A stretch of DNA of 53,236 nt from Candidatus Saccharimonadia bacterium (lineage in GTDB: Bacteria; Patescibacteriota; Saccharimonadia; UBA4664), in NCBI GenBank assembly GCA_038251135.1, contig JBBSBR010000003.1, positions 1 to 53,236 on the forward strand, in the 5' to 3' direction. The position numbers and the translations under genes are program-made. The notes under the pieces were generated by a model that was not told where the DNA came from, did not search any database, and saw only the letters and a list, made by a program, of their open reading frames with translations. Shown in pieces: positions 6,821 through 50,037 of this stretch. Every line of letters starts with the position of its first letter. The first letter of the stretch is position 1.

Positions 6821-6871
6821 AGGATATATGATGTATTTCTTACAACATAACTGAGAAAGTTTGACCGGCAA

Positions 6872-7279
6872 TTACGCCTTGGCGGCTACTAATTCCTCCT
6901 TGGCTGACACTTCGGCTTGCTCCTGCCGCTCGATAAGCTTCAACTTAAACCACTTGGTCAGACCCCATGACTGCTTCATGATCGAAACGTAAGTCTCGAC
7001 GAGTTCATCGGAGACGCCTAGGGTCTTAGCTTCCTCGAGGAGCTTCTGGGCGGCCTCGGCTTCCCGGCGCGCGTTGGCGAGGGCATCAAGCTTCAGCCGA
7101 TAGCTGAAGAGCCGATGAGCCTCCATGATGTAGTGAGAGACGCCGGCGCTGGTGCGGCGCAGATCGTTGCCCAGCGGGTAGTGCTGTTCGGCGGGGAAGA
7201 GCTTTACGAGCTCGTAGACTTGGTCTTCGGCGGCGCGGGCAGTCTGGTAGATACGCAGTTGTTTGATTGATTCGGCCAT
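6872..7279 (-). CDS. Four-helix-bundle protein (23S rRNA-IVP / bAvd-like superfamily)
   Basis: LRIYQ...YELVKLFPAEQHYPLGNDLRRTSAGVSHYIMEA pattern; AGGAGG SD before ATG 7279. Confidence 0.85.
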   Translation of the reverse strand: MAESIKQLRIYQTARAAEDQVYELVKLFPAEQHYPLGNDLRRTSAGVSHYIMEAHRLFSYRLKLDALANARREAEAAQKLLEEAKTLGVSDELVETYVSIMKQSWGLTKWFKLKLIERQEQAEVSAKEELVAAKA

Positions 7280-7345
7280 TTGAAACCTCCTTGCCCGCGG
7301 CACCTTACCTAAAACCACCGCGGGACCTAAACGTTATTGTGTGTC

Positions 7346-7390
7346 TCACCTCATATTGTCGATGATACCGAATAAAAACCGAACAGTCAA
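7346..7390 (-). promoter_or_regulatory. Promoter with TTCGG-N6-TTCGG operator (candidate LexA box)
   Basis: TTGACT-17bp-TATCAT; repeat at 7368-7383; 38/45 identical to 30631-30675. Confidence 0.8.
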
Positions 7391-7445
7391 TACCGAAAAA
7401 GAGCGATGAAAATCGCTCTTTGGCAATGAACGTTGGCGGCTGATT

Positions 7446-7907: not shown

Positions 7908-9092
7908 TCACACAGAGACGTCCTGGTAGAACATCAGGCCCAATTTGATCTGCAACGCGTCATCAAAATGCCTGGGGTCGAGCTGAATGAGCTTCTTGGT
8001 CTTATCGAGGCGATAGATGAGGGTATTGCGATGGATATGGAGGTTGGTGGCGGCTTCAGTGAGGTTGAGGCCGCTGGCCAGGAAGCTTTGTACCGTTTTG
8101 AAAAGCTGCTCGTCGCGCAGGAGCGGCGAGAGGATCTGATATGCCAGCTCGGCTTTGCGGTCCTGCGAGGTATTTGCGAGAGTAATGAACATGCCGACGT
8201 TTTTGATATGGTAGGGTCGGTTCGGACCCCAGACTTTCTTGCCTACCTCAAGCGCTAATTTGGCATCCTGATAGCTTTTGCGCAGACCGGCCAGATCGGG
8301 GTAGTACTGGCCTATACCTACGGTGAAGTTGAGTTTTAGTTGTAATTTTTTCAACATATTAAACAAGTTTTCGCCTTTTTCGTTCATGAACTTGATTGTG
8401 TTCAGAGTCGTGAGGTAGTCTCCGCCAATACCTTTGAAGAGAACGAAACGATCATTGCCCAGGTAGGCTACCAGGTTGTCCTGATGGTTTTTGTAAAATT
8501 CACGGAGAATATTCGATAGCCTCGTCGTCTCTTCGTCGAGCTTGAGCTGCTGCTCCTCAGCCGAGAGGCCGCGATGCAGATGGTGCTGAGCCGTCTCCAG
8601 GCCGTCGAATTCGATAAGGATCATGGCTTGGGGGGATCGCACGTCGAGCTGCAGGATATCGGCTTGGCGGTAGATGTCCTCGGTGATAATCGAGCCGGCG
8701 GTCAGAAGTTGCGTCAGGAAATCGGCTCGGATACGCTCGCTGCTCTGGAGCTTGTCGAACAGAAAGTGCTGGTAGAGGAGAACTTCAGCCAGGCCATGGA
8801 GGAGGTTGATGGCTTCCTGGGTAATCGGCTCGACGTCCACCGGCAGACCAAAGACGGCAGCGGTTTGTCCTTCATAGACGAACGGCCACCACTTGGTCTG
8901 GCGGTCGAGGTAATTGGTCGTGATGGTATGGCCGGTCTGAGCTACTCCGAGGGCTTCGGCAACGAAACGGTGGGAGTCTGCCTGTGCGCCCACGAGGACC
9001 TGGCCGCTCGTGTCGGTAATGACGATGTCGCGTTTGAGGATGGCCCGTGATTTCTCGGCTACCTGTTTTGCTAAGGCGCTATTTAGTTCCAT
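7908..9092 (-). CDS. CdaR/PucR-family transcriptional regulator (paralog 2)
   Basis: N-terminal LAKQVAEK..DIVITDTSG, VGIG...LRKSY, C-terminal HTH LHIHRNTLIYRL; start ATG 9092 overlaps the upstream paralog. Confidence 0.9.
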   Translation of the reverse strand: MELNSALAKQVAEKSRAILKRDIVITDTSGQVLVGAQADSHRFVAEALGVAQTGHTITTNYLDRQTKWWPFVYEGQTAAVFGLPVDVEPITQEAINLLHGLAEVLLYQHFLFDKLQSSERIRADFLTQLLTAGSIITEDIYRQADILQLDVRSPQAMILIEFDGLETAQHHLHRGLSAEEQQLKLDEETTRLSNILREFYKNHQDNLVAYLGNDRFVLFKGIGGDYLTTLNTIKFMNEKGENLFNMLKKLQLKLNFTVGIGQYYPDLAGLRKSYQDAKLALEVGKKVWGPNRPYHIKNVGMFITLANTSQDRKAELAYQILSPLLRDEQLFKTVQSFLASGLNLTEAATNLHIHRNTLIYRLDKTKKLIQLDPRHFDDALQIKLGLMFYQDVSV

Positions 9093-10215
9093 GGCCGGCC
9101 TCCACGAATCTGCCGTAAAGTATGGCGAGACGGATCTGTACCGCGTCATCGAAGACTCTCGGATCAAGCTCGAGCGTATCGGTGATGCGATCAAGACGAT
9201 AGACCAGCGTATTGCGGTGAATTTTGAGTTTCTCGGAGGTCCGGGTCAGGCTCATATCGAGCTCAAAGAAAACTTCCAGCGTCTGTGTGACCTCCTGATT
9301 TTCGCCCAGGCGTTCCAGAAGCTCGCGTGAGAAATAGATATTGTCTTCATCGACGCCCGTCAGCAGCGGTGCCACCACCCCGAAGTCGTCAATATGATAA
9401 ATCCGATCCTGATCCCAAGTCTGGCTTCCAAGCTCAATGGCCGAGGTGGCTTCATGGTAGCTTTGGCGTAAGCCTTCGATACCGGGATGGTAATTGCCGA
9501 CGCCCACCGTCGCCGGCAGCTTCAGCTCGCTCTTGAGAATGCCGTAGATGGCATTTAGACTCTTTTTGAACGTGTCGAGACTGGCATTTAGGTCGCCGTC
9601 GGTCTCGGTAACCAGGTCTTTCAGAATGGAGAATGAGGTCCCGCCGAGGTAGCTTACGACGTTTTCGCGGCTTGAGGTGTAGAAGGAGTTGAGCGCGCGC
9701 GTAATCCCAAACTTATAGCGCGTTACGCGGGTTTCGCGGTCGCTCGAGGGATCCTGCTGCCTAGCGATGAGCTTGGGATCGTCGATTTGGATGATGATGG
9801 CAATCCGAGGACGTTCGATATCGACGTTGAACAGGCGCGCCTCGGCGGACAATAGCGGCCAATCGGGCTGAGGCTGATTGAGGAGATCGTAGATGAACTT
9901 ATCGACCCGTTCATCTTGGCGGGGAATCTGCTCCAAGACGATCGTTTGGTGCATTACGAGCTCAGCGATGCTTTTGATGAGCGGCGCGGACTCGTCTTGA
10001 TTGGGCAGCTGAGTCTCCATAACGATGAATCCGACGGTACTCCCGCCGTAGCTGATCGGGATAGCCCAGGGCGTCTTACTCAGATCAATGTTGGCTGCGG
10101 CGAGAGACGGCGTGGCAGACAGCGTCTTGCCATCGGGGTCGGTAACCCTGAGTTCACGATTAACAAGGGTAGCCACCTTGGAACGTATTTTGTCGGCGAT
10201 TTGCTGACTCAGCAC
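9079..10215 (-). CDS. CdaR/PucR-family transcriptional regulator (paralog 1)
   Basis: VGVG...LRQSY, HTH LKIHRNTLVYRL; GTG start at 10215 with GAGGT SD. Confidence 0.9.
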   Translation of the reverse strand: MLSQQIADKIRSKVATLVNRELRVTDPDGKTLSATPSLAAANIDLSKTPWAIPISYGGSTVGFIVMETQLPNQDESAPLIKSIAELVMHQTIVLEQIPRQDERVDKFIYDLLNQPQPDWPLLSAEARLFNVDIERPRIAIIIQIDDPKLIARQQDPSSDRETRVTRYKFGITRALNSFYTSSRENVVSYLGGTSFSILKDLVTETDGDLNASLDTFKKSLNAIYGILKSELKLPATVGVGNYHPGIEGLRQSYHEATSAIELGSQTWDQDRIYHIDDFGVVAPLLTGVDEDNIYFSRELLERLGENQEVTQTLEVFFELDMSLTRTSEKLKIHRNTLVYRLDRITDTLELDPRVFDDAVQIRLAILYGRFVEAGHGTK

Positions 10216-10302
10216 ACTTCCATACCTCTTAAGTTGGTACTTCCTACAAATAGCGTAACGAACGAGCGGTATCCTCGCAAGCATTAGGGTCTTAAAATGA
10301 AG

Positions 10303-10332
10303 CGCCTCCTCCGCCGTTAAGCGGAGGAGGCG
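10303..10332 (-). terminator. GC-rich hairpin ending the Gam-like gene
   Basis: Perfect 12-bp stem CGCCTCCTCCGC/GCGGAGGAGGCG, followed on the minus strand by CTTCATTTT. Confidence 0.75.
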
Positions 10333-10340
10333 TGAGCTAG

Positions 10341-10949
10341 TCACTGCTTTGCGACAGGCGGGTTCGTCCCGGAGGAGGGGAGCAGACCCTGATCGGCAGC
10401 GAGACGTTGCAGCCGGGCTACCGGCAGGACGAACGGCTCGGAGCAGTTGGCAGCGCGAATCGTAAAGGTTTCGACGCCCGGCGCGCTGGCCGAGGCGAGC
10501 TGGCCGAGAACCTCGGGAAACTTCTGCTTGAGGGGGTCCTTGCGGATCGTCTTGACCGTTTTTACGATCTGATCGGCAAGCTCCGGGAACCGGGTCTCGA
10601 CCTCCGCTACGGCCGCGTCTTCGCCGTCAGGGAAGATCATCGCTCCGACCGCCCGCGTGATCCGTTCGGCCGTACCCGTGCCCAGATCGGCAGTCTGAGT
10701 ATCGGTGAATTCTGACCACCGGGGGTAGACGCTGGCAAAGATCGCGGCGGCGTCCCGTTCGATGAGGCGGCCGTCCCTGGCGTCGAGCGAGGCCAGCTGG
10801 GACTTGATGACGGTGAGCTGGTCTTCGTGACGAGCCTTACGGGCGTTGAGCCGCGCGCGGCGGTTCGTGACGCGCTGGAGGCGGCGCCCCAGCCGAGCGA
10901 CTGCCAGAGCCAGCTGCTCCGGGGTCTTGATTTGAGAGGTAGTCGACAT
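10341..10949 (-). CDS. Mu Gam-like host-nuclease inhibitor / DNA end-binding protein
   Basis: Long N-terminal coiled coil, then TADLGTG, DAAVAEVE, IVKTVKTIRKDPL, GVETFTI, collinear with Mu Gam motifs as I recall them. Confidence 0.7.
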   Translation of the reverse strand: MSTTSQIKTPEQLALAVARLGRRLQRVTNRRARLNARKARHEDQLTVIKSQLASLDARDGRLIERDAAAIFASVYPRWSEFTDTQTADLGTGTAERITRAVGAMIFPDGEDAAVAEVETRFPELADQIVKTVKTIRKDPLKQKFPEVLGQLASASAPGVETFTIRAANCSEPFVLPVARLQRLAADQGLLPSSGTNPPVAKQ

Positions 10950-11187
10950 GACTACGTCCTTCCTGGTACTCCCACACTCTCGCAGTGGGCTAGCGCCGAC
11001 AGAAGGTTTTCTGTACGAATGACGATACCGTAGAGTTATGATCGCATCCAGTCAAATTTTGTTACCTAACTGCATGTAGCCCGCGGTTAACGCGGAGCAC
11101 CTAGCCTACTGCCCGCTGGGCGGCGGATAAAGCGGGTTCTTGATCGGAGAGGGGATTTCCGCTATAGTTCTCCCTTGTAGACGCCTT

Positions 11188-11264
11188 GGATCCTTAGCTC
11201 AGCTGGCTAGAGCGCCTCATTGACGTTGAGGAGGTCAGAGGTTCGAATCCTCTAGGATCCACCA
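11188..11264 (+). tRNA. tRNA-Val(GAC)
   Basis: Cloverleaf, anticodon arm CCTCA-TTGACGT-TGAGG, GTTCGAATC, encoded CCA. Confidence 0.96.
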
Positions 11265-11423
11265 TAATGAACGCCTCACGAAAGTGGGGCTTTTATTATA
11301 GCGGATGCCAGAAAGTCTGAGACACGAAAATCGAAGCGGAGGTTCGTCCGGCCCCTTTCGCCAGAGTTTCACCGTATCCTAGAACGTTTCTTATTAATCC
11401 GCTACAATTCTTTCGTTGCCCAT

Positions 11424-11500
<77 letters not shown>

Positions 11501-11596
11501 AGGTAAAGGCCCCGTCTTCGGGGTCTTTACCTTGGCTGATTGTCTAGGATAGAGAATCTTTGGTAACATTAACTTTATAGATGATATGGAGCCCAA

Positions 11597-12001
11597 ATGC
11601 CCGAAGGATCAAGACAAGAAGAGTTCCCGATTCCGCCTCAACAAGAATCCGAAGAACCGGCCGTTGTGAATCCAGCCCCCGAGAGACTCAATCCTCGCGA
11701 AGAATTGGGGAAAGTTGAACGTGATCAAGATACTACGAATCAGATCCAAAAGATTCGTCGCAGCCAGTTGATCGCTCAGGCTCGCATCGATATCGAGGCC
11801 GGCGGAAAGAGGCGGGAGGACAATGAAAGGCGGAAGCAGGAGGAAAAGAAGATTACTGATGCCGCAACTGCGGCGGGCGTTCATGTTGAGCTTGTAAGTC
11901 AGTCTGAAGTCGACCAGACCGGAGCATTAGCCGGTCTCAGGCAGACCACGGAGTCAAATGGGACGCCGCCGGCTCCGGAAGCCCCCGATCAGACCAAATA
12001 A
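11597..12001 (+). CDS. Hypothetical low-complexity/coiled-coil protein
   Basis: 134 aa ORF filling the gap, E/Q/P rich, followed by a hairpin at about 12011-12047. Confidence 0.6.
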   Translation: MPEGSRQEEFPIPPQQESEEPAVVNPAPERLNPREELGKVERDQDTTNQIQKIRRSQLIAQARIDIEAGGKRREDNERRKQEEKKITDAATAAGVHVELVSQSEVDQTGALAGLRQTTESNGTPPAPEAPDQTK

Positions 12002-12063
12002 ATTAGACTTGACCAAAACCGGCTCCAAATCGAACCGGTTTTGTGGTAATCTGAGGGTGTTAG

Positions 12064-12215
12064 AGAGCGTTGACCGGGTCCAACCAACCCGCGAGCCCCG
12101 CCGCCGCGAGCGTATCGTAGCATCCTAGAGCGTCCCGAAGACCGTTTCGGGGAAGTCTGGTGGAACCGCCCCTCAGTTTGGGGTCCAGACGCATAGCCGA
12201 GCTATGCGTCTTTTT
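12064..12215 (+). promoter_or_regulatory. T-box riboswitch (Thr) with transcriptional terminator
   Basis: T-box TCTGG-TGGAACC-GCCCC..GGGGT-CCAGA antiterminator (12156-12189); terminator GACGCATAGC/GCTATGCGTC-TTTTT (12188-12215); ACC specifier at 12083 in a very short stem I; directly upstream of thrS. Confidence 0.88.
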
Positions 12216-12236
12216 GTAACTAATTGAGGTTATTCT

Positions 12237-14087
12237 ATGAGTAAATCAGTCGCCCCCGAACATGTTTATGCCATGCGTCACTCCATGGCGCACATTATGG
12301 CGACGGCCGTGCAGGAGCTTTACCCGGAAGCCAAGTTCGGTATCGGCCCCGTCGTTGAGAACGGCTTCTATTATGACATCGACCTTCCGGTGCGCCTGAG
12401 CGAGGAAGATTTGAGCGCCATTGAGAAAAAAATGAAGGAGGTCGTTAAGGCCAACTATCCGTTTGAGCAGTCGCACATGAAGCTCGACGAAGCCATTGAT
12501 TACTTTGGCCGTAAAGACCAGACCTTCAAACTCGACCTGCTGAACGACCTCAAAGTGCACGGCACCACGGTCGCCAAGGACATCGACCGCACGCAGCTCG
12601 GCATCGAAGAGGGAAACCGGGTCGACGAGGTGTCCATCTATACCGACGGCCCGTTTGCCGACCTCTGCCGGGGTCCGCACGTGGAGAGCACCGGCCGCGT
12701 CGGCGCCTTCAAGCTGATGCGAGTGTCCGGCGCCTACTGGCGGGGCAACGATCAGAACGCCCAACTTCAACGTATTTATGGTGTAGGATTTACAACGAAA
12801 GAGGAGCTAAACGCCCATCTGACTATGCTGGCCGAGGCTGAGAAGCGTGATCACCGTAAGTTGGGCAAGGAGCTTGATCTCTTTGTCTTCAGCGATCTCG
12901 TCGGACCCGGTCTGCCGCTTTGGACGCCCCGCGGAACGACGCTGCGACGTGAACTGGACAATTTCGTACAGGAGTTGCGCGGCGAATATGACTTCCAAGA
13001 AGTCGCTATCCCGCACATTACCAAGAAAGATCTCTACGAGAAGAGCGGTCATTGGGAGAAATTTAAGGACGACCTCTTCCGAATCGAGACGCGTGAGGGT
13101 CATGAGTTTGCGATGAAGCCCATGAACTGTCCGCACCACGCCCAGATTTTTGATTCGCGCCCCCGCAGCTACCGCGAAATGCCCGTCCGCTACCGTGAGA
13201 CCACCATGGTCTACCGCGACGAACAGAGCGGTGAGCTAGGAGGCCTCTCGCGCGTGCGCGCCATCACTCAGGATGATGCGCATGTCTTCTGCCGCCAGAA
13301 CCAGATTAAGACCGAGGTACTGCAACTTTGGGATATCGTTGAGCGTTTCTATGGGACGTTTGGCTTGGAGCTGCGCCTTCGAGTGTCCACTCACGATCCG
13401 GAGAATATGCAGGCGTACAGTGGCACGGCCGAAGCTTGGGAGGTATCGGTCAATCAACTCAAAGCGATTGCCGAGGAGAAACTGGGTGCCGACTACGAAG
13501 TCGGTGTCGGCGAGGCGGCGTTCTACGGACCGAAGCTCGACTTCATGGCGCGCGACGCCATCGGCCGCGAGCACCAAGTCGCGACGATTCAGCTCGATTT
13601 TAATCAGCCCGAAGGGTTTGACCTCAACTGTATTAACGAAAGCGGTGAGACGGAACGCGTGGTGATGATCCACTGTGCCATTATGGGCAGTATCGAGCGG
13701 TTCCTGGTCGTTTTGATCGAGCATACGGCCGGTCGTTTCCCGCTCTGGCTGGCTCCTGAGCAGGTTCGAGTAACTTGCGTCAACGATGATCCGGCTGTCA
13801 TACGGTGCGCCCAGGATCTGGTTCGCGACCTCAAGGCCGCCAAGGTACGGACCGAACTGGATATTACCAATGAGAGCGTCGGCAAGAAGATCCGCTCTGC
13901 CGAGCTGGCCAAGGTACCCTATACGGTGGTAATTGGCACCAAGGAGGCCGAGAGCGGCCACCTGACCCCCCGAGTGCGGGCGGATCTGGCCGTTGCCAAC
14001 GAGAAAGACCACGACATTACCTTCGAGAACTTCGTGCAAAGCGTGGCCCGCGAGATCAAGACCCGGGCAAGCCGTTCGAGCCTGTAG
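12237..14087 (+). CDS. thrS: Threonine--tRNA ligase
   Basis: RHSMAH, DLCRGPH, RDHRKLG, KPMNCPHH, AFYGPK, GSIERF. Confidence 0.98.
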   Translation: MSKSVAPEHVYAMRHSMAHIMATAVQELYPEAKFGIGPVVENGFYYDIDLPVRLSEEDLSAIEKKMKEVVKANYPFEQSHMKLDEAIDYFGRKDQTFKLDLLNDLKVHGTTVAKDIDRTQLGIEEGNRVDEVSIYTDGPFADLCRGPHVESTGRVGAFKLMRVSGAYWRGNDQNAQLQRIYGVGFTTKEELNAHLTMLAEAEKRDHRKLGKELDLFVFSDLVGPGLPLWTPRGTTLRRELDNFVQELRGEYDFQEVAIPHITKKDLYEKSGHWEKFKDDLFRIETREGHEFAMKPMNCPHHAQIFDSRPRSYREMPVRYRETTMVYRDEQSGELGGLSRVRAITQDDAHVFCRQNQIKTEVLQLWDIVERFYGTFGLELRLRVSTHDPENMQAYSGTAEAWEVSVNQLKAIAEEKLGADYEVGVGEAAFYGPKLDFMARDAIGREHQVATIQLDFNQPEGFDLNCINESGETERVVMIHCAIMGSIERFLVVLIEHTAGRFPLWLAPEQVRVTCVNDDPAVIRCAQDLVRDLKAAKVRTELDITNESVGKKIRSAELAKVPYTVVIGTKEAESGHLTPRVRADLAVANEKDHDITFENFVQSVAREIKTRASRSSL

Positions 14088-14419
14088 TGAGCGATATGAC
14101 CGCGTTCTCGGATCGAGTAACGGATCTGGTAGCCCGGATTCCTTCCGGCCGGGTGATGACTTACGGCCAGATAGCGGCGCTATGCGGGAGTCCGCGCGCC
14201 GCCCGCATAGTGGGCGGAGTGGCGCATTACGGATCCGAAGAGCTGCCTTGGCACCGGGTGGTCAATAAGCAGGGCGGGCTGGCAGCGGCTTTCCCGGGCG
14301 GGCGCGCCGAACAGGCCAAGCGCCTCGCCGGAGAGGGGATCGAGCTCAACGAGTCGGGCGTCGTCGATATTGACTCGATACTATGGTGGCCTTCAAGTAT
14401 AAATATAATCGATTTATGA
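14087..14419 (+). CDS. Alkyltransferase-like (ATL/MGMT family) DNA-binding protein
   Basis: IPSGRVMTYGQIA, PRAARIVG, PWHRV (Trp in place of the catalytic Cys). Confidence 0.9.
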   Translation: MSDMTAFSDRVTDLVARIPSGRVMTYGQIAALCGSPRAARIVGGVAHYGSEELPWHRVVNKQGGLAAAFPGGRAEQAKRLAGEGIELNESGVVDIDSILWWPSSINIIDL

Positions 14420-14423
14420 TGTA

Positions 14424-15314
14424 ATGATTACAACGAAAAATTCACAAAATAATAAATTTATCACTATTCTGGGGCCGACGGCATCAGGTAAGTCAGACTT
14501 AGCCTTGAGGCTTGCCGAAAGCATAAACGGTGAGATTATCTGTGCTGATTCCCGGACCGTCTACCGCGGTATGAACATCGGTACGGCTAAACCGACCGAG
14601 GCTGAGCAGGCAAGGGTGCCTCATCATCTGTTGGACGTCGTAAATCCGGATCAGCGTCTGAGCGCCGCCGAGTTCAAGCGACTTGCCGTGGACGCAATTG
14701 AGTTCATTCATAACCGGGGCCGGGTACCATTGTTGGTCGGCGGGAGCGGACTCTACATCGACAGCGTTATCTTTGACTATAAATTTCCGCCGGAGGCCGA
14801 TCCGATTCGGCGCCAAGCCCTCGAGGCGCTGAGCGACGACGCCCTGCGCGAGCGCTTGAAACAAGCCGACAGAGCGGTCTACGAAAATACCGATACCGCC
14901 AACCGCCGCCGGGTTGTCAGAGCGCTGGAAACGCTTGATGCACCCCGATCTCGCCGTGATCAGATGCTGCCCGATACCTTGGTTCTCGGACTGACTATGA
15001 ACAAAAATATTGCTCAAAAACGAATAGAAATGCGTATCGAAAAAATGCTTGAGGAAGGCTTTATTGACGAAGTAAGAGCTGTCGGAACTGAGTACGGTTG
15101 GGACTCTGAGGCCATGAATATCATAGGCTACCGGGCCTTTAAGGACGTCGTCTTGGGTACCAGAAGTATTGCCGACGGGATTGCTGATTTTGCGGCCGGC
15201 GACATGGCTCTCTACAAAAAACAGATCACCTGGTTTCGGCGTAATCCGTCGATTCACTGGCTCGAAGATCCAGCCGACGCCGACAGACTCGTGCGCACAT
15301 TCTTGGATGATTAA
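14424..15314 (+). CDS. miaA: tRNA dimethylallyltransferase
   Basis: GPTASGKS, ADSRTVYRGMNIGTAKP, VGGSGLY, KKQITWFR. Confidence 0.96.
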   Translation: MITTKNSQNNKFITILGPTASGKSDLALRLAESINGEIICADSRTVYRGMNIGTAKPTEAEQARVPHHLLDVVNPDQRLSAAEFKRLAVDAIEFIHNRGRVPLLVGGSGLYIDSVIFDYKFPPEADPIRRQALEALSDDALRERLKQADRAVYENTDTANRRRVVRALETLDAPRSRRDQMLPDTLVLGLTMNKNIAQKRIEMRIEKMLEEGFIDEVRAVGTEYGWDSEAMNIIGYRAFKDVVLGTRSIADGIADFAAGDMALYKKQITWFRRNPSIHWLEDPADADRLVRTFLDD

Positions 15315-16703: not shown

Positions 16704-17413
16704 AATCCATCGTCATCGCCCATCTCTACCCGCGCGAAATGAATATTTATGGCGACCTGGGAAACATTATTACTCTCAGGAAGCGCCTCGAGTGGCGCGG
16801 ATACGCTGCGGAGGTACGGGCGGTCGAAGTCGGCAAGCCTTTCGATTTCTCCGAGGTCGACATCGTTTTCGGCGGTGGCGGGCAGGACTCCGGGCAATTG
16901 CTGGTCGGCGCCGACTTGGCGGAGCGGGGCGAGGAGTTGCGCCGTCTGGCCGCCGAGGGGGTACCGATGTTGGTGATCTGCGGCCTATACCAGCTATTCG
17001 GACGGGCATTTATGACGCTGGAGGGACAGAATATACCCGGAATTGATGTATTTCGCACAACGACTACCGGCTCACCAACCCGGATGATCGGTAATATCGT
17101 GATTGAAAGCAGCTTTGGAAGACTTGTCGGCTTCGAGAACCACTCCGGACAAACCCGGCTCGAACCCGAACAATCGCCTCTGGGGAAAGTGAAACGGGGT
17201 TTTGGAAACAATTCCGCCGGAAAATTCGAGGGGGCAGTTAGTAACAATGCAATTGGCTGCTACTTGCATGGACCGGTATTGCCCAAGAATCCGGAGCTGG
17301 CCGATGCGATGATTTTGACGGCTTTAAACCGCAAGTACGGCGTAACCGAGCTGGCATCGCTGGATGACAGTGCAGAGCTGGCAGCCGCCGAGGTGGCAGC
17401 ACGGCGTCCGTGA
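16700..17413 (+). CDS. gatD: GatD glutamine amidotransferase
   Basis: MNIYGDLGN, GGGQD, ICGLYQ, GFENHSG, YLHGPVLPKNP; coupled to murT. Confidence 0.94.
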   Translation: MKSIVIAHLYPREMNIYGDLGNIITLRKRLEWRGYAAEVRAVEVGKPFDFSEVDIVFGGGGQDSGQLLVGADLAERGEELRRLAAEGVPMLVICGLYQLFGRAFMTLEGQNIPGIDVFRTTTTGSPTRMIGNIVIESSFGRLVGFENHSGQTRLEPEQSPLGKVKRGFGNNSAGKFEGAVSNNAIGCYLHGPVLPKNPELADAMILTALNRKYGVTELASLDDSAELAAAEVAARRP

Positions 17414-18972: not shown

Positions 18973-19659
18973 ATGATCGAGCAACTATTTGGTTCGAAGA
19001 CCCGCGTGAAGCTCTTGAGCCTATTTTTTAATAACCCCGGACGGCCTTTTTATGTCCGTGAAATAACCCGCAAAATCGACGAGCAGATCAACTCGGTCCG
19101 TCGGGAACTGGCAAATTTATTGTCGATCGGACTGGTTTCGTCCGACAGTTCGAACAACCGCCTCTATTATGAAGTAAATCCAAAGTACGAATACTACGAA
19201 CAGCTACGGACCATATTTACTTCCATGCCGACCAAGAGCGCCGATCCGGTAATGCAGGAGACACGCGAAGAGGATCAGATTATCAAGAAACTTCGATCGA
19301 CCGGAAGCATCCAACTGGCACTGCTCACCGGTACGTTCGCGCGTGATGAGCGTGCCAATGTCGATATCTTCGTGGTAGGGGACGTCAATAAGGCGCGTCT
19401 GGCGAAGGTGGTTGCCGAGCTTGAGAAGGAAATGGGCAGGGAGCTCAATTACAGTTGTCTGACGCCGGCTGAGTACGACTATCGTATCGGTCTCAACGAC
19501 CGCTTCATAACCAACATCATGGAGTCAAAGAAGATAGTGGTGATCGACGGTCAGCACGAGAAGCCGTTGGTCCACAATGACGTGACGTTCGGTGAATTTG
19601 TTGAGGGTTCGCGGACCTCCCGCCGGGTGCCTATTTCGATCCGATTTCCCGGCCGCTAA
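18973..19659 (+). CDS. Winged-HTH plus nucleotidyltransferase-like domain protein (CPR-type)
   Basis: LFGSKTRVKLL..YVREITR..NSVRREL HTH, then TGTF..VDIFVVGD. Confidence 0.8.
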   Translation: MIEQLFGSKTRVKLLSLFFNNPGRPFYVREITRKIDEQINSVRRELANLLSIGLVSSDSSNNRLYYEVNPKYEYYEQLRTIFTSMPTKSADPVMQETREEDQIIKKLRSTGSIQLALLTGTFARDERANVDIFVVGDVNKARLAKVVAELEKEMGRELNYSCLTPAEYDYRIGLNDRFITNIMESKKIVVIDGQHEKPLVHNDVTFGEFVEGSRTSRRVPISIRFPGR

Positions 19660-28249: not shown

Positions 28250-28265
28250 GATCGTAAGGCTCCTC

Positions 28266-35759: not shown

Positions 35760-35926
35760 GCCAATCTCCTCCTTAGTGCTCTCATGCTACCCTGACGCGT
35801 CGGGAGGGGACTATGGAGGGGATTACGAAAATGCTCGTGTCTCGCGGATGGTTTTTGGAGATATTGTAGAGTTGATTACAACAATGCTTATGCTTAATGG
35901 AGAGTAATTGACCGAGTAATAGCTGG

Positions 35927-36319
35927 GTTGTCACCCTGAGCTTGTCGAAGGGTCTAGATTAATTCATTTATAGATATTTATTACTTTTGCCACCAAAAGT
36001 AACCAAAATTGCTGGGCCAAATATCTCCTTGAGACCAGCTGACGTATCGTTCAGCGACCGACAGAATCGACCCCGTTGAAGTCGTCGAGGACGACGTCTT
36101 TACGGGGATTGTCCCTCACTTATCTAATTGAGGTTCGGGCTATTCTGCCGGTTATTCGCTGACCGCTAAGCCATCTGCTTCAGGGAGATATTTAACGCCC
36201 AGACCCCGCCGCGGGGCTGCTTGGTCGGGATCCCCAGGGGATACAGGCAATGCTTCAAGGACTAGTAGCATCCCCTGGGGACTTTACCGTAGTTGTCATC
36301 CTACGGCTTTACCGGAGGT
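35927..36319. repeat. Composite palindromic (REP/BIME- or MITE-like) element
   Basis: Two GTTGTCAYCCT-initiated REP-like hairpins (35927, 36292) bracket TTACTTTTG/CAAAAGTAA, a 190-nt branched hairpin (36012-36202) and TCCCCAGGGGAT/ATCCCCTGGGGA (36231-36281). Confidence 0.65.
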
Positions 36320-36416: not shown

Positions 36417-36794
36417 GGGGCTGATCAGCTTCGACGTTGGGACTTTTACAAGCTATGTGCGCAGGTCGTTTTGCACGCGTAACGTGCTACAACTTACCTC
36501 AATTGGCAAGTTTTTTGCGCAGGTGAAGGCAGCTTTTAGCTCACCTTCATTTGCACCAGCTTACGCCTAAACAACATAAGCCATCGGCACCTGACTCCAG
36601 ATGGGGGTTCGCCGGTGTTATATTATCTGGACGCTCCGAGCAGTAGACCTCTGCTGCCCGGCTAAGATGTGAGGTTGCTCTAGCGGAGAGTCTGTTCGTT
36701 CATGGCCGCTAGCTAAGATTTAAGACGGACTAAACCTGTAGTGCACTCGCGAGTAACCCGGCGGACCGGGGTGCAATTCCCCGCAGCTCCACCA
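36417..36794 (+). ncRNA. ssrA: tmRNA
   Basis: GGGGCTG...CAGCTCCACCA Ala acceptor with G3-U70, TTCGAC, tag ORF 36505-36570 GKFFAQVKAAFSSPSFAPAYA*; terminator 36793-36825. Confidence 0.96.
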
Positions 36795-37001
36795 TTAAAA
36801 CCCGACTAAGTGTCGGGTTTTAATGTAGGCGTTACAACAGAATCAGCCGGCATCCGACCTCATAGGCCGCTTATAATGAATCTACCTGACCTCCGAGGTC
36901 GGGAATAGAGTTCGGGCTATGTACTTACCTCTCAGGGCAGCTTACGGATGTTCCCGCAAGGCTTTAACTCAATTATACTCAAGTTAGCGTAGATATTACT
37001 A

Positions 37002-39403: not shown

Positions 39404-39553
39404 TGGGCAATATGCTTAACTGACAAGCCGAGCATTCGCACTGACGGCTTACACTCAATAAATACCCGGCAACGACCGGGTATTTCTTCGTTTAATGCAG
39501 GTTAGTGAGTAAGAACGGTCTAAGAATTCGTTGTAACAAACACTACAAACAGA

Positions 39554-40639
39554 TTAATTATCAGCAGAAAAGAATATGACCCCGCTTGTGCGGGGCCAGT
39601 CGGTTATGGGCAGGTACGGGGAGAAGAGCGGCTCGACGTCCGGTTCGGTGCGCGGCCCGCTGATCACGAGCCTGCCGAGCCGATAACGAGGTCCGGAAGG
39701 CACGTTGGCATCGCACTCGGTGCGGACCGGGCAACTGCCGCAGGCGAGCCCGAAAGCCTCGATGTCGGTAGTTTAGTTCCAATCCGGCTCGTAGGCAATT
39801 TGCACCGTACTTCGGGCGTTGTAGCTGCCGATCTGCAGCGTCCGGTTACCAGGATTACGCCGGCGCAACGTTCGGGACAGTATCCATAGCGCATCGGCAA
39901 ACCGATTGCCGTCCAGTCCGTGTCTGAGTTGGTAGTCCAGGTACAGATCCCGAAGCAGCGCTTGGATGGCTTCGAACTCGCGGTCCGACTTCGCTATGAG
40001 GAGATCGCCGTCGCTGCGGCGCAGGATCCCGGTGGCGATTGCCACCCGCTGCAGGTGGAAGTCCACCGGCGGCGGGAATGGGAACGGCGTGATGAGATTC
40101 TCCTCCATGAGGAAGTAGAGCAGCATGCTCACCATCTTGGAGCGGAAGCCGATGAAGCCGTCGCCATTACTCTGGTGCAGACGGCGTTTGGCTTCCTCGA
40201 AGTCCGTAACTCCATCCAATATATTGAGTACGTTGCCGTCCCACCGGTCGATGAGGCGTTGCGCATTCTCAATCCACCCCGGGGCGGATTGATGCATGCC
40301 CAGACTCACCCTAGTCAGCAGCTCGACGATGCGCTTGGGCTGGAGTTGGGCGGCATCGCGGACGTTGAACGGGTTGCGACAACGGCGCGGTGCCAGGTAT
40401 TCGTAGAGCACTCCGAGCTGTTTGGCGGCATCGGTGCTGTTGACCCCGCCACGCATCCAGAGGCAAACGACCATCCAGTACCAGGCTTCTTCGGCTCCGC
40501 ATCGCTTGAGCGAGGACGGTATGAATTGCTGCGGCAGCATTGTGAAGGCATGCTTGTAGGGGTATTGGCCGGATGCGTAGCGTTCCCAGATCTTACCGAG
40601 GACCACCTCGGCTCGAGGCTGGTCAACGGTATAGATCAT
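39554..40639 (-). pseudogene. HhH-GPD/endonuclease III-like DNA glycosylase interrupted by an in-frame TAA (39773-39775)
   Basis: GFRSKMVSM (HhH-like), PPVDFH, ALWILSR; the same frame continues after the stop with CGSCPVRTEC. Confidence 0.65.
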
Positions 40640-40903
40640 GGTTTACTCCCTAGCTGAAGGTTCGGACAGGGCCTAGCTTATAGTCAGCCCGGACATACGT
40701 CAAGACGCGGTATCAATCCAGTAACACTTGCGGCAGAAATCGTTGTAATTATATCAACAAAAGCATCCCCGTAATTGATTGCCAGCTATCGTCAGTCCGA
40801 GCATAGCTTTAGTTTTTTGCTGTATGCGCGTAAGATACACTCGATAGCGGCTATGGCGCCGCCAGGCGTTTCCAGCCCTTTGATACCGACCCGAGAGGCA
40901 AAC

Positions 40904-43437: not shown

Positions 43438-43661
43438 CAACTCGCATCCGATACAGCATGTGGTTAATAAAGTTGTAAGATATACAACGTTATTATATCG
43501 CCAAGGCAACATGCAGTCATTTGCAGGCCTGAACACCAATATGCGTCAGATCGGTTAAATACCTTGGAAAAGGGATTTACTACCATCAGATTTCGATAGT
43601 GTGAATCGTTCGGCGGTGTGGGGCGAAGTATGTCATAATTGCACCTAGAATTGAGCCAACG

Positions 43662-46242: not shown

Positions 46243-47328
46243 ATGAATAATAACCAGCAGCCGCGCAAAGTGCATTACGACGAGGCTGATGAAACTTTTC
46301 CCCCGTCCGCAACGCCGACTCCGTCCGTGGCTCAGCCCAGTCCTCCGTTACCGCCACCCCGCCCCCACAAGCGCCATTGGGGGCGCATAGCCGGTGCGAT
46401 TGTGCTTCTGATATTGTTGGGGCTTGGTATATATGTGGCTGTCTTGATCAAAAACGTTGCAAAAATATCAACATCTCCTTTTACATTAACGCCTTTGGCA
46501 GCGGATTCCACCGGTCGTACCAACGTATTGTTGCTGGGCGAAGGCGACGCGGGTCACGCGGGTGAAGGTTTATCCGATACCATGATGCTGCTCAGCATCA
46601 ATAAGCCCACGAATCAGACGGCCCAAGTCAGCATTCCGCGCGATCTGCGCGTGCCCATCCCGGGCTACGGCTATGCTAAGATCAATAGTGCCAATGCTCA
46701 GGGCGGCGTTACGTTGGCCCAGCAGACGGTAAGCAACACCTTCGGCGTGCCGATTTATTATTTCGTCTCAACGAATTTCAGCGGACTGGTATCGGTGATT
46801 GATTCGGTTGGCGGCATTGAGGTTGACGTCCGAGAGCGCCTCTATGACCCCGAGTATCCTTGCGACAACAATCAGTATTTGGCTTGCGGGATGGACATAC
46901 AACCCGGGTTACAGCATATGGACGGCGCAACCGCCCTCAAGTATGTGCGTTGCCGTAAGGGCACATGCGGCAACGACTACGGACGGGCGTTGCGCCAGCA
47001 AGAGGTCGTAAATTTACTGGTCGCTAAGATTATGACCTGGCAGACGCTCCTGAACCCGTCGAAGCTTATTCCTTTGACCAGCTCCTTGAGCGGTGCACTG
47101 AAGACCAATATGGGCGCCGTGCAGATGGGGGAGTTTGGTTTGAGTTGGCTCAGCGGCCGGAAGCACCAGCCGATAACGTTGGTGCTGTCGACTTTTCCGG
47201 GCAACTACCTCGTTGACGACCCGTCATCGAGCGACTTATTGCCCAAGGGCGGCAATTTCACCACGATTTCCAACCGCATTGAAAATATCTTCACTTTGCC
47301 GACGCTCGCGAGCGATATACCTAAGTAG
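46243..47328 (+). CDS. LytR-CpsA-Psr (LCP) family protein
   Basis: NVLLLG, SDTMML, SIPRD, KINSA, ALKYVR.R, DYGRALRQQ. Confidence 0.93.
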   Translation: MNNNQQPRKVHYDEADETFPPSATPTPSVAQPSPPLPPPRPHKRHWGRIAGAIVLLILLGLGIYVAVLIKNVAKISTSPFTLTPLAADSTGRTNVLLLGEGDAGHAGEGLSDTMMLLSINKPTNQTAQVSIPRDLRVPIPGYGYAKINSANAQGGVTLAQQTVSNTFGVPIYYFVSTNFSGLVSVIDSVGGIEVDVRERLYDPEYPCDNNQYLACGMDIQPGLQHMDGATALKYVRCRKGTCGNDYGRALRQQEVVNLLVAKIMTWQTLLNPSKLIPLTSSLSGALKTNMGAVQMGEFGLSWLSGRKHQPITLVLSTFPGNYLVDDPSSSDLLPKGGNFTTISNRIENIFTLPTLASDIPK

Positions 47329-47478
47329 CCCCAATAGGGTAGCTGCGAACGCAAAAGGTGAGGCGGCACGCACTCTGCAACGGGCGGACGCTAGGCGGCC
47401 GCTGCGCTATCGGCTTACGGCAGGCTTTGTGCTGGCGGGCAATTCGGCTTATGCTAGAAGAGCATAAGTGGTATATCG

Positions 47479-49110
47479 ATGATTCCAAAATCCAGTTCAA
47501 GCCGTTGGTATGAGCGCAGCGTACTCTACCAAGTCTATCCGCTCAGCTTTGCCGACTCGAATTCGGATGGGTTTGGTGACCTCAAGGGCGTAATCAGCCA
47601 CCTGGATTACCTTAATGACGATACGCCGGAGTCGCTGGGCGTGGGGGCTATCTGGCTCTCGCCGGTCTTCAAGTCACCCATGGCGGACTGGGGCTATGAC
47701 ATATCCGACTACAACCAGATTGATCCTAAATTTGGCGACATCTCCGATCTCGACATCCTCGTCTTTGAGGCCCATAAGCGCGATATCAAGGTCTTACTCG
47801 ACCTAGTCGCCAACCACACCTCTAGCGAGCACCCGTGGTTTAAGGCCTCTCGCTCAAGCAGGACCGATCCCAAACGTAACTGGTATATCTGGGCCGACCC
47901 CAAGCCGGACGGGATGCCGCCCAATAACTGGCTGTCCCGCTTCCAGGGACCGGCGTGGACGTTGGACGAGCATACCGGCCAGTACTATATGCATACTTTT
48001 TTGAGCCAACAACCGGATCTCAATTGGCGTAACGCGGATGTCAGGCAGGCGATGGGCAAGATGATGAACTTCTGGCTGGAACGGGGAATCGACGGTTTTC
48101 GTGCGGATGCGGTTACCTCACTGCTTAAGGATGCCCAACTGCGCGACGATGAGCCAAACCCGGAGTACAGGCCCGGTACAGATGAGCCGAGCGAGCGCAA
48201 TATTAGGACTCGCAGCGAAGTTCGAACGGAATCTGTAGATATAATTACAACGTTTTGTGAAATTATGAGCAAATCCGGCGACAAGCTCCTCGTATCTGAG
48301 GCTTATCTTGATATTCCGGGCATGCAGGAACTTTACCGTGCGTGCGACGACCATCCGCTCCACGCGCCGTTTAATTTCAACCTGATCGGGCTTGGTTGGT
48401 CGGCCGCCGGCTTCCGTTCATTCATTGATGAATACGAAGCTTCAATGCGGCCGGAGGATATTCCGAACTATGTTTTGGGCAATCATGATCGATCGAGAGT
48501 CGTCACCAGGGTCGGTTATGATCGTGCCAGGCTGCTGGCGATGCTTCAGCTGACGTTGCGGGGTCTGCCGGTCATTTACTACGGTGAGGAGCTGGGAATG
48601 ACGGACATCGACGTCCCCCCCAAGCAGCAGCGGGATATTAACTCGGTGACTTCGCAGGGCGAGGGCCGTGACGGCGTGCGTACGCCAATGCCCTGGTCGA
48701 CTGATGATGTAATTACTACAACAGATATAAATTGGCTTCCCAAAGGAATAAACTCAGGACAATTGAGTGTCGAAAATCAAACCACCGATCCTCAGTCGAT
48801 GCTTAGTTTCTACCGCCATCTCATTCACTTGCGCCAAACGTTGATCGCACTGCACCGAGGCTCATATCGTTCATTGCAGACGTCCGATCCGGACGTTTAT
48901 GGGTACGTACGCGAAGACGGGTTGCAAAAATGTTATGTATTCTTGAATTTTTCTCCCAGCCCAAGCTCGGTTAGCGTTGGGCGGATCGGGCGATGGATAG
49001 CCGGAACCCATTTGGTGGATGGCGACGGAGAAACACTGGAGATTCCCGAGCTGACACTCGAAGGTTATGAGGGGCGGCTATATGAATTAAGACGGGGTGA
49101 GAAGTTATGA
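47479..49110 (+). CDS. GH13 alpha-glucosidase / oligo-1,6-glucosidase
   Basis: YQVYPLSFADSN.DG.GDL, DLVANHTS, DGFRADAV, NHD, RDGVRTPM. Confidence 0.93.
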   Translation: MIPKSSSSRWYERSVLYQVYPLSFADSNSDGFGDLKGVISHLDYLNDDTPESLGVGAIWLSPVFKSPMADWGYDISDYNQIDPKFGDISDLDILVFEAHKRDIKVLLDLVANHTSSEHPWFKASRSSRTDPKRNWYIWADPKPDGMPPNNWLSRFQGPAWTLDEHTGQYYMHTFLSQQPDLNWRNADVRQAMGKMMNFWLERGIDGFRADAVTSLLKDAQLRDDEPNPEYRPGTDEPSERNIRTRSEVRTESVDIITTFCEIMSKSGDKLLVSEAYLDIPGMQELYRACDDHPLHAPFNFNLIGLGWSAAGFRSFIDEYEASMRPEDIPNYVLGNHDRSRVVTRVGYDRARLLAMLQLTLRGLPVIYYGEELGMTDIDVPPKQQRDINSVTSQGEGRDGVRTPMPWSTDDVITTTDINWLPKGINSGQLSVENQTTDPQSMLSFYRHLIHLRQTLIALHRGSYRSLQTSDPDVYGYVREDGLQKCYVFLNFSPSPSSVSVGRIGRWIAGTHLVDGDGETLEIPELTLEGYEGRLYELRRGEKL

Positions 49111-49916
49111 AGTTAGTCTTTGACATCGGCGGAACCAATACTCGGCTGGGTTTGGTTCATCAAGGCAAATTGGGTCCGACCAGACACTTCAAGACGGATA
49201 CGTCGGCTCACGGGATCGACTCCATGCTTGACCGGACGCAAGAGTTTACGGCCGGACATCGGCTCGACGGCATCGCCGGGGGATTGCCGGGACAGATCGA
49301 CCGTGTTACTGAGCGGATTGTTCACGCCACAAACCTGCCGAACTGGGAGGGTCAGATCTTTACCGCGGCTTTGCGGGACCGTCTGGGCGCACCGGTTACG
49401 GCCGTGAACGACGTGATGATCGGCGGACTTGGCGAGGCGAATTACGGAGCCGGCAAAGGACGTTCGATTGTGGCTTACTTTACGGTAAGCACCGGCGTTA
49501 ACGGCGTCAGGATCATCGACGGCAGCCTGGATCGGAATGCTCGCGGATTCGAGGTTGGCGCCCAGCTCATGAGTGACGACGAGGGTAATTTGTCGACGCT
49601 CGAGGGTCTCACGGGCGGTGCGGCGCTTAACCGTCGGACCGGTAGCGACCCACGCAATATCCATGACCCTGCGATATGGCGTCAGGAGGCGCGTTTTCTA
49701 GCGCGCGGCCTATATAACAGTTGCTTGCATTGGTCGCCCGACGTCGTAGTTCTGGGGGGTCCCATGATGCATGATATTTCGATCGACGAGATTATTTCAG
49801 AAATGCATCAGCACCCCGACATGACTGGAGGATGGCCCGAAATAGTACCTGCAATCCTTGGAGACGAGCGTGGGCTGCAGGGCGCGATATCGCTATTGGG
49901 TTACAAAACGCCGTAA
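49107..49916 (+). CDS. ROK-family sugar kinase
   Basis: DIGGTN, NDV..G.GE, TVSTGV, VVLGG; coupled to the glucosidase. Confidence 0.9.
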   Translation: MKLVFDIGGTNTRLGLVHQGKLGPTRHFKTDTSAHGIDSMLDRTQEFTAGHRLDGIAGGLPGQIDRVTERIVHATNLPNWEGQIFTAALRDRLGAPVTAVNDVMIGGLGEANYGAGKGRSIVAYFTVSTGVNGVRIIDGSLDRNARGFEVGAQLMSDDEGNLSTLEGLTGGAALNRRTGSDPRNIHDPAIWRQEARFLARGLYNSCLHWSPDVVVLGGPMMHDISIDEIISEMHQHPDMTGGWPEIVPAILGDERGLQGAISLLGYKTP

Positions 49917-50037
49917 TAATTACAACAATATATGATATTTTGTTCATTTGACCGCTTCGGTGCGACAAAATAGTGTCTTCGGCTTGTCGCTTATGCTAAA
50001 ATTTAGGGTAACTTAACTGCATGGTGAGCAGACCAAG

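Follow-up and report, generated by a model that had tools for sequence, protein, structure and literature searches.

A bounded array of 17-bp palindromic sites in one syntenic block of Saccharimonadales chromosomes

Contig JBBSBR010000003.1 of assembly GCA_038251135.1 (Candidatus Saccharimonadia bacterium) carries many copies of a short palindrome, GTTGTA-N5-TACAAC, dispersed among and within its genes. The stretch analysed, called the window below, is 53,236 nucleotides long and is the whole of this contig (C3), one of the 45 in the source genome (G000; 865 kb, 94% complete). Sites were scored with a fixed position weight matrix (PWM) made from 24 seed sites, 15 loose matches on C3 and 9 on a second contig, C8, with a threshold of at least 12 bits; iteration of the matrix was dropped because it drifted into generic AT-rich sequence (62, 130, 254 and then 435 hits). 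Scored in this way, the window part of the array extends over 6830-53236, from the first site up to the end of the contig, holds 19 distinct sites, with none in 1-6829, and continues on C8. The original prediction, made from the letters of the window, had listed 16 sites and three weaker ones; all are present at their coordinates.

The first site, GATGTAtttctTACAAC (6830-6846; 25.2 bits), lies between the convergent ends of dinB and a 23S-IVP gene (neighbours identified by Pfam), and the next, GTTGTAattttTTCAAC (8339-8355; 24.1 bits), deep within the first of two PucR/CdaR-type paralogs. Within thrS, over the peptide GVGFTT, is GGTGTAggattTACAAC (12780-12796; 19.4 bits), conserved in the relatives G007 and G004; its conservation may be owed in part to the peptide. 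GATGTAatgatTACAAC (14418-14434; 24.9 bits) stands at the ogt/miaA junction and GATGTAtttcgCACAAC (17045-17061; 17.4 bits) within gatD, both by Pfam; GCTGTAataaaTACAAC (21922-21938; 23.6 bits) separates a tRNA-Pro gene (21767-21842) from that of RNase P RNA (22138-22526). GTTGTAtgaatTACATC (24135-24151; 25.2 bits) is 65 bp into a GT4 gene, at the junction with a sugar transferase gene, and has same-position sites in G007 and G004. The weaker GTAGCTatattTACAAC (30058-30074; 16.8 bits), not a seed, lies within comM, with counterparts at most 35 bp from the projected position in G007, G024, G023 and G020. Two GT4 genes on the minus strand carry one site each: GTTGTAattctATCAAC (33571-33587; 22.4 bits) within 32940-34226, matched at the same position in G007, G004 and G023, and GTTGTAatttaATCAAC (34693-34709; 21.4 bits) within 34223-35443.

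The transfer-messenger RNA (tmRNA) gene (36417-36794) is preceded at about 550 bp by the weaker intergenic site GTAGAGttgatTACAAC (35866-35882; 15.3 bits; not a seed), and AATGTAggcgtTACAAC (36822-36838; 14.8 bits) comes directly past its 3' hairpin. Further along are the weaker GTTGTAacaaaCACTAC (39530-39546; 16.6 bits), between the convergent ends of a PAS-domain gene and the minus-strand gene 39773-40639; GTTGTAattatATCAAC (40742-40758; 24.1 bits), in a divergent intergenic region; and the perfect palindrome GTTGTAagataTACAAC (43472-43488; 22.3 bits), between the convergent ends of rnhA and an AI-2E transporter gene. GTTGCAaaaatATCAAC (46456-46472; 18.8 bits; not a seed) is at the 5' end of an LCP gene, with same-position sites in G007 and G004. 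An alpha-amylase gene contains two sites, GTAGATataatTACAAC (48235-48251; 19.4 bits; not a seed) over the peptide VDIITT and GATGTAattacTACAAC (48706-48722; 26.0 bits) over DVITTT; finally, GCCGTAataatTACAAC (49910-49926; 20.8 bits) is at a gene junction, the end of 49107-49916. By the G000 gene calls, 10 of the 19 are intragenic, 8 of these deep inside the gene. The earlier estimate that about half lie in coding sequences stands, with Pfam confirming thrS, the CdaR paralog, gatD, the GT4 genes, comM and the alpha-amylase gene; the LCP site, however, is intragenic only with a longer frame and lies upstream by the present call. The same prediction had noted one site between convergent 3' ends; that type is confirmed, but there are three (6830, 39530 and 43472).

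Alignment of 27 G000 sites with 91 from five relatives gives the 17-bp consensus yGTTGTAA-www-TTACAACr, in which positions -8 and -5 are both G in 94-100% of sites. Beyond ±9 there is little information, apart from a weak A/T preference at ±11-12 in G000 only. TGTA-N5-TACA occurs 8 times in the window, where 0.25 is expected, in agreement with the eight cores and fewer than one by chance given originally; GTTGTA-N5-TACAAC with up to two mismatches occurs 15 times against 0.85 expected. None of 100 dinucleotide shuffles reaches 8 for the one pattern or equals 15 for the other, and the enrichment stands. The spacer is specific as well: C3 and C8 together have 24 matches with N5, 3 with N4 and none with N6, so that the neighbouring spacings are not equally common. 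The counts for N2 (12) and N8 (9) are read as N5 sites counted again at ±3 bp, a reading of the counts and not of compared positions. Across 80 loci the motif gave 135 matches, against 44 and 24 for the swapped-half and reversed controls. Most sites are imperfect, and for this reason a de novo scan restricted to exact palindromes left the motif unranked; a palindrome scan across sets of orthologous loci mostly returned conserved genes. AT content is 0.63-0.70 in the ~40 bp centred on the sites and 0.50-0.54 from there to roughly ±70 bp, the genome being at 0.45; the AT-rich patch of 50-100 bp described at the outset is real, but narrower, strongest in the central ~40 bp. A literature search, judged by titles and abstracts, found no published description of the motif or of any site array in Saccharibacteria.

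The original prediction took this for a chromosome-wide code, which it is not. Genome-wide there are 14 TGTA-N5-TACA cores, 8 of them on C3. Of 41 loose matches, C3 has 15 and C8 has 9, and the remaining 43 contigs (776 kb) share 17, the last about what shuffles give; that is, 10% of the genome holds 24 of the 41. At 12 bits or more, 47 raw hits reduce to 46 distinct sites, 19 on C3, 10 on C8 and 17 elsewhere, a density about 20-fold higher on C3 and C8 (29 sites) than in the other 776 kb, where the background is ~0.2 sites per 10 kb and most hits lack the invariant GTTG. An unbiased scan of all 6-Nk-6 near-palindromes for contig bias ranks GTTGTA-N5 second, with 13 of 13 hits on C3 or C8. The two contigs are evidently neighbours, end to end, because C3 is collinear with 317-380 kb of the relative G023 and reversed C8 with 385-421 kb (tblastn of gene calls), and the same C3-then-C8 gene order is found in G024, G025 and G020. 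Joined with a zero gap assumed, the array comprises 29 sites over 69.6 kb (69,630 bp), from window position 6830 to C8:12880, about 8% of the genome; its C8 part, in reverse orientation, has 10 sites from C8:36119 down to C8:12880. The flanks, window 1-6829 and C8 1-12,800, have none at this threshold. The motif is restricted to one block.

Two of the functions suggested originally fall with this result. Noc- or SlmA-type occlusion sites would cover most of the chromosome, and here ~8% is covered; a DNA-uptake sequence would need hundreds of copies genome-wide, whereas the whole genome has 46 distinct scored sites, of which one block holds 29, and the motif is symmetric. The more general suggestion of a protein-recognition code survives in part: selection acts on the sites as DNA, irrespective of genes and promoters, as described next, but the code is not chromosome-wide.

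Selection at the DNA level is seen most directly inside genes. When synonymous codons were shuffled within each gene (300 shuffles), the 67 block genes, which contain 16 intragenic sites, yielded 1.95±1.29, and no shuffle reached 16; the 738 other genes contain 5 sites against 4.47 in shuffles. The codon-preserving check proposed at the outset therefore finds an excess in the block and none outside it. GC content at third codon positions (GC3) is 0.22 in the codons under intragenic sites and 0.65 in their host genes, and so the AT-rich turn in codon style that had been noticed around such sites is borne out. Only two reading phases are used, V-(V/D)-x-x-T-T and x-L-x-x-L-Q-x. The site in the first CdaR paralog (CdaR-1) is instructive: of 26 genomes examined, 22 are gap-free at this place, and 8 of these have a site at the same codon position (seven members of the family and G023, from another family), spelled TTG-CAA-AAA-TTA-CAA or similar; orthologs without the site have a similar peptide, written with CTG/CTC codons. 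Sites in block genes are under selection as DNA.

Promoters do not explain where the sites lie. An extended -10 element, TGnTAYAHT, served as promoter proxy; 63 of its 110 genomic copies are located 5-150 bp upstream of called gene starts, and promoters without an extended -10 are outside its reach. Within 150 bp of a site the proxy is found at 1 of 29, GTTGTAattatATCAAC being the sole case. Thirteen of the 29 are more than 100 bp inside a gene, 3 are between convergent gene ends, and 16 are intergenic or within ~65 bp of a gene end. The sites are unlinked to promoter-like elements, and the misfit with ordinary promoter operators remarked on originally is upheld. Nor does gene identity explain it. 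The atp operon, inside the block in G000 (C8 21.4-27.6 kb), has 3 sites; in G023 it lies outside the array, at 605-611 kb, and scores 6.8 bits at most; in G025 it lies beside the array and has none at 12 bits or more. Because the operon has sites only where it is inside the block, the sites appear to track position and not the gene. Likewise, window 35.8-50 kb is lineage-specific, with genes that lack orthologs in the G023 array, yet it holds 9 sites (two within the alpha-amylase gene). The genes of the block have no single theme: they include five aminoacyl-tRNA synthetase genes, infC-rpmI-rplT, rplY, miaA, murT/gatD, glycosyltransferase and LCP genes, and also bactofilin, DUF4446, comM and repair genes and those for RNase P RNA and tmRNA.

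The position of the block on the chromosome could be read in G023, a closed genome on a single 1.19-Mb contig, from dnaA and the detrended cumulative GC skew. There dnaA is at 94 kb, the skew minimum at 100 kb and the maximum at ~640 kb; with a drop in raw skew near 690 kb, the terminus is placed at ~640-690 kb. The array, at 313-407 kb, is mid-replichore in this one closed genome and starts ~219 kb from dnaA. Elsewhere, dnaA and array lie at 310 kb and 122-190 kb in G025 and at 314 kb and 119-184 kb in G004, and dnaA and the CdaR genes at 325 kb and 465 kb in G013 (the same genome as G153) and at 252 kb and 111 kb in G154. In these five genomes the array is 120-220 kb from dnaA, always one-sided. 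Joined C3 and C8 show no switch in GC skew, and clustering of DnaA boxes in G023 gave no clear origin. The array lies away from both origin and terminus.

Conservation was examined among relatives of G000's own family (G004 and G007) and of other families (G020, G023, G024 and G025), and more widely in the order. With at most one mismatch, the motif reaches at least three times its reversed control in 16 of the 31 genomes of the order (G000 included), and its matches cluster: 9 of 13 within 315-389 kb in G023, and groups at 134-173 kb of contig C2 in G025, 45-83 kb of C3 in G024 and 134-169 kb of C2 in G004. PWM scans of the syntenic stretch found, besides the 29 sites over 69.6 kb in G000, 24 over 68.5 kb in G025, 24 over 64.6 kb in G024, 26 over 65.1 kb in G004, 17 over 58 kb in G023 and 16 over 36.9 kb, where the contig ends, in G007; that is, ~24-29 sites over 65-70 kb in four genomes of three families. 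Nineteen of 20 further relatives carry 1.0-5.5 sites per 10 kb beside the CdaR genes, and only G029 has none there (6 kb covered).

Individual sites are far less durable than the array. G000 sites were projected to relatives through protein alignments, with a chance expectation of 4-6%. Within the family, 8 of 11 orthologous sites are kept in G007 and 5 of 10 in G004; in other families the numbers are 3 of 13 (G024), 3 of 12 (G023), 1 of 15 (G025) and 2 of 10 (G020). The old sites deep inside genes are those in CdaR-1, comM, one GT4 gene and an AddB-like gene. Across families, then, the array is conserved while most of its sites have relocated, number and span staying constant. Gaps between sites are more even than random in G000 (coefficient of variation, CV, 0.63; P=0.006) and G007 (CV 0.50; P=0.002) and borderline in G023 and G025; the genomes compared are kin, so these tests are not independent. 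In three distant Saccharimonadales the motif is below its control (30 vs 81, 107 vs 126 and 65 vs 94) and unclustered. Where other members of the phylum have the motif in excess (G143, G047 and G067), the copies are dispersed or belong to a repeat element and do not form an array. G067, of the same class, has six near-identical copies of GTTGTAATTTTTACAAC on six contigs, which look like a dispersed repeat element.

Several encoded proteins might read such sites. The tandem PucR/CdaR-type paralogs at 7908-10344 on the minus strand (Diacid_rec, GGDEF_2 and HTH_30 by Pfam) sit at or near one edge of the array, and the pair is found in 26 of 31 relatives, in none of the 3 array-less Saccharimonadales, in none of 5 same-class genomes and in 10 of 120 genomes in the phylum. 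Both paralogs share a helix, HRNTL(I/V)YRLD(K/R), nearly invariant in 26 genomes. This shared distribution keeps the pair, proposed originally as binder, a viable candidate; co-distribution within one clade is non-independent evidence, and G022 (97% complete) has a motif excess, 8 vs 2, yet no CdaR homolog was found there. As an observation on the gene itself, the best matches to CdaR-1 (window 7908-9194) in 18 of 26 relatives contain at least one in-frame stop (TAG in 16), and G000 has none; the stops probably reflect a stretch that overlaps the upstream paralog.

A second candidate, also proposed originally, is the protein encoded at 18973-19659 on the plus strand (P0001), a winged-helix domain with a nucleotidyltransferase-like C-terminal part; it has only a weak ArsR-type hit and no Pfam family, and its profile gave nothing meaningful against PDB sequences. 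The first 70 residues hardly vary among 21 Saccharimonadales orthologs, and the family is present, usually in single copy, in 90 of 121 Patescibacteria genomes; P0001 is a core protein of unassigned role. In 31 distant loci without a dense array, a motif-like site (GTWG-N9-CAAC register) is found ~62 bp upstream of the P0001 start, where it overlaps the 3' end of the miaA coding sequence. Of the Thr codons at this site, the first is ACA in 31 of 31 loci and the next in 14 of 31, ACA being 22% of the Thr codons in those genes, and the Val codon is GTW in 28 of 29. The site looks like an autoregulatory operator, and with the conserved N-terminus it leaves P0001 a plausible binder. No such site was found upstream of 20 P0001 homologs from other classes or orders (best 4.4 bits), and in G000 no site is present in the promoter regions of the CdaR operon or of the P0001, TrmB and MarR genes.

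The third protein named originally, a TrmB-family regulator (30728-31543, plus strand; Pfam; the sole TrmB hit in G000), is weakened as a candidate, since none of its orthologs turned up in G024, whose genome is 100% complete and carries an array of 24 sites. Others were set aside: a MarR-like protein on C8 is not conserved in the arrays of other families; an Lrp/AsnC reader (Ss-LrpB consensus TTGYAWWWWWTRCAA) was sought through PF01037, found in 0 of 5 genomes; and for a LexA (SOS) box, lexA is on C9, a contig with no site at 12 bits or more. As candidates, P0001 and the CdaR pair rank about equal, ahead of TrmB, MarR and ParB.

The reading we favour, though with somewhat less than an even chance, takes these sites to be bound by a single dimeric helix-turn-helix (HTH) protein acting on the entire block. 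Such a protein, sequence-specific and two-fold symmetric, would bind the sites; selection would maintain ~25-30 of them, at ~2.5-kb intervals, over one syntenic block of 65-70 kb, wherever coding constraints permit; and the protein would treat the block as one physical unit, which it might coat, bridge or compact, or hold at a given place in the cell, and would be neither a gene-by-gene promoter operator system nor a genome-wide code. We infer the binding, the identity of the binder (PucR/CdaR pair or P0001) and the architectural role, going beyond a bounded array selected as DNA, because site density is kept despite turnover, because the sites are indifferent to promoters and reading frames, because there are no targets elsewhere, and because of the atp case.

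Conceptually, the array resembles several known systems: matS, ram, RBM and multi-copy parS; it fails the motif, location and reader tests of each. Like the array, matS is a short palindrome present in about two dozen copies in one domain, genic and intergenic, with a dedicated dimeric protein, MatP. The analogy drawn originally holds for a domain-restricted, gene-indifferent palindrome but not for place: matS marks the terminus over hundreds of kilobases, whereas the array covers 65-70 kb, is mid-replichore in G023 and has another motif. Multi-copy parS of actinobacteria consists of tens of palindromes, many in genes, over tens to hundreds of kilobases of one part of the chromosome; parS, however, is a contiguous 16-bp palindrome, and the array site has 17 bp with a 5-bp AT-rich centre and is not next to the origin. 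In Bacillus subtilis, the RacA-ram and RefZ-RBM systems employ transcription-factor-like proteins and small sets of palindromes at set positions to anchor or capture part of the chromosome, the RBMs being on the chromosome arms; those sets are centred on or symmetric about the origin and serve sporulation, while the array is one-sided and its bearers are non-sporulating epibionts. The glycolytic motif of Thermococcales, TATCAC-N5-GTGATA, has the same 6-N5-6 geometry and is read by the TrmB family, of which TrmBL2 is chromatin-like, and a TrmB-family gene lies inside the array; but the half-site differs, and the TrmB ortholog was not found in array-bearing G024. Known PucR/CdaR regulators, finally, act at promoters of a few operons, whereas here the pair shares the distribution of the array and sits at its edge.

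Another reading supposes that the sites are a non-canonical centromere, serving Saccharimonadales in place of parS and recognised by the chromosomal ParB. G000 does have parA and a full-length parB (ParB_N, HTH_ParB and ParB_C; contig C17, 5886-7555). Of 121 genomes in the phylum, 35 have canonical parS, TGTTNCACGTGAAACA (a 16-bp palindrome); none was found in G000, even with up to two mismatches, or in 5 same-class genomes, and the 31 genomes of the order are at control level. The outer half-site GTTGTA also resembles the parS half GTTnCA. Against this, the spacing between the halves exceeds that of parS by 3 bp; the array comes no closer than 120 kb to dnaA and is also distant from parB; and parS in other Patescibacteria is mostly clustered tightly, with 2-12 copies in 1-2 kb, and is not spread out. 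A search near parAB of G000 and G023 for a parS-like palindrome, and for tight arrays of any palindrome, found nothing shared. The protein itself also speaks against it. In Caulobacter ParB, the outer G of parS is recognised by R173, a residue reported not to vary among variants specific for parS (Jalal et al. 2020, PMC7383237). In Patescibacteria with canonical parS, 5 of 5 keep R at the corresponding position; in G000, G007, G004, G023, G024 and G025, six genomes that all carry the motif with an invariant outer G, it is R, R, V, T, Q and K. Because the residue varies while the motif is constant, ParB is unlikely to be the reader, and the centromere reading is improbable. A second, shorter frame containing ParB_N (286 aa) was seen at ~300.1-300.6 kb of contig C1 in G023, where the array begins ~13 kb further on; a search of G000, G004, G024 and G025 gave no counterpart.

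The main rival is a block-wide regulator: a transcription factor encoded in the block, most plausibly the CdaR pair and otherwise P0001, would co-regulate the block, its sites being operators, roadblocks or internal control points. We regard this as possible but doubtful, and it is compatible with an architectural role. The common recognition helix of the CdaR paralogs suits a palindrome with identical halves, and the pair lies where such a regulator might, at or near the array edge; more than half of the sites (the 16 of 29 in or near intergenic DNA) are in places an operator could occupy; the synthetase, ribosomal-protein, miaA, RNase P RNA, tmRNA and tRNA genes could form a regulon; and the constrained site upstream of P0001 in array-less relatives resembles autoregulation. 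A regulon accounts poorly for 28 of 29 sites lacking a promoter-like element within 150 bp, for the 13 deep in genes and 3 between convergent ends, for the bare promoter regions of the CdaR, P0001, TrmB and MarR genes, for relocation between families at constant number and span, for the lack of targets outside the block, and for G022, with its motif excess and no CdaR homolog found. Footprints of mobile or recombining DNA (ends of miniature elements or recombinase sites), accumulated in the block by chance, are very improbable: palindromic 17-mers with AT-rich flanks do resemble some recombinase sites, and the six G067 copies are repeat-like, but similarity ends within ~21 bp around the sites, spacers differ, sites in essential genes are in frame and made by synonymous choices, and the synteny of the block is kept across families. 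Repetitive extragenic palindromes and miniature inverted-repeat elements were rejected, with little information beyond ±9 and 16 sites inside called genes. Still less credible is selection for RNA or DNA hairpins (terminators, processing signals or cruciforms), although the arms are inverted repeats and several sites are at ends of transcription units, e.g. past tmRNA. Arms are fully complementary in 3 of 29 sites and deviations are uncompensated in the opposite arm, so the sequence appears to be read as such and not as a hairpin; what is conserved is the arm sequence, not mere complementarity; the stem would be 6 bp and AU-rich; and no Rfam family overlaps any site. Hardly to be believed is an origin in chance or base composition. 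The motif and its patches are AT-rich, and an over-iterated PWM drifts to AT-rich sequence, but neither the 100 dinucleotide nor the 300 codon shuffles reach the counts, N4 and N6 are at background, both motif controls fall far short, and the same block is marked in other families.

A number of points weigh against a block-wide architectural protein, or at least counsel caution. PWM scores are circular for the 24 seeds, and 24 of the 29 scored block sites are seeds. The G000 gene calls are home-made, most with Pfam backing. Some scored sites, such as that in thrS, may be by-products of V-x-x-x-T-T peptides. Even spacing is absent in G024 (CV 0.98) and G004 (CV 0.87). A single translocation event carries the argument for position over gene identity. 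Many genes of the block serve translation or the envelope and could be co-regulated, and the distribution shared by the CdaR pair and the array fits a regulator equally well. We know of no organiser array at mid-replichore, so that an architectural role would be without precedent, nor of any palindromic array for PucR/CdaR-family regulators.

A few further features were noted along the way. Bactofilin and DUF4446 genes (membrane helix plus coiled coil) are adjacent at 27866-28754, near the middle of the array, and the pair is syntenic in 5 of 5 relatives. RNA genes of the block are those already placed for RNase P RNA, tmRNA and tRNA-Pro, with two tRNA-Val genes (11188-11500) and the second of two tRNA-Pro genes (C8 28246-28321). 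On C8, a 1.2-kb, very AT-rich spacer (~27.6-28.8 kb) adjoins the atp operon, and the PheRS beta-chain gene (9963-12764) has an NlpC/P60 peptidase domain hit (residues 442-528) between B3_4 and B5, an unusual insertion. On contig C24 of G000, a 21-bp near-palindrome, TCCTCCGG-N5-CCGTAGGA, and its complement (4209, 6146, 6518 and 8259) bracket dnaA and the next, dnaN-sized gene in alternating orientation; this was the top hit of the contig-restricted palindrome scan and is unrelated to the array motif. A related copy is at window 36301-36317, ~100 bp upstream of tmRNA. TCCCC-N1-GGGGA occurs 17 times in the G000 genome, against 0.34 expected.

Returning to the reading of the array as sites for one dimeric protein, a bolder form of it would make the array the cis element of a new chromosome-organising system of Saccharimonadales, in which a lineage-specific HTH protein (the PucR-type pair or P0001) compacts, anchors or times a mid-arm domain of ~70 kb. 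We advance this only tentatively. If true, the array might, for example, be a segregation handle independent of ParB, in a clade whose ParB has lost the fixed parS-reading residue, or a titration locus, the duplication of which half-way through replication would signal progress of the cell cycle.

For chromosome folding, segregation and regulation in the ultrasmall, host-dependent Patescibacteria, the array is a sharply bounded, conserved signature of one 70-kb block treated apart, and the short list of candidate readers makes the question directly testable. It is also a clean natural case of DNA-level information written into coding sequence: the same peptide is encoded by AT-rich codons where a site is kept and by GC-rich codons where it is not. 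Models of segregation will have to accommodate a whole order that keeps ParAB but in which canonical parS was not found and the parS-reading arginine is no longer conserved.

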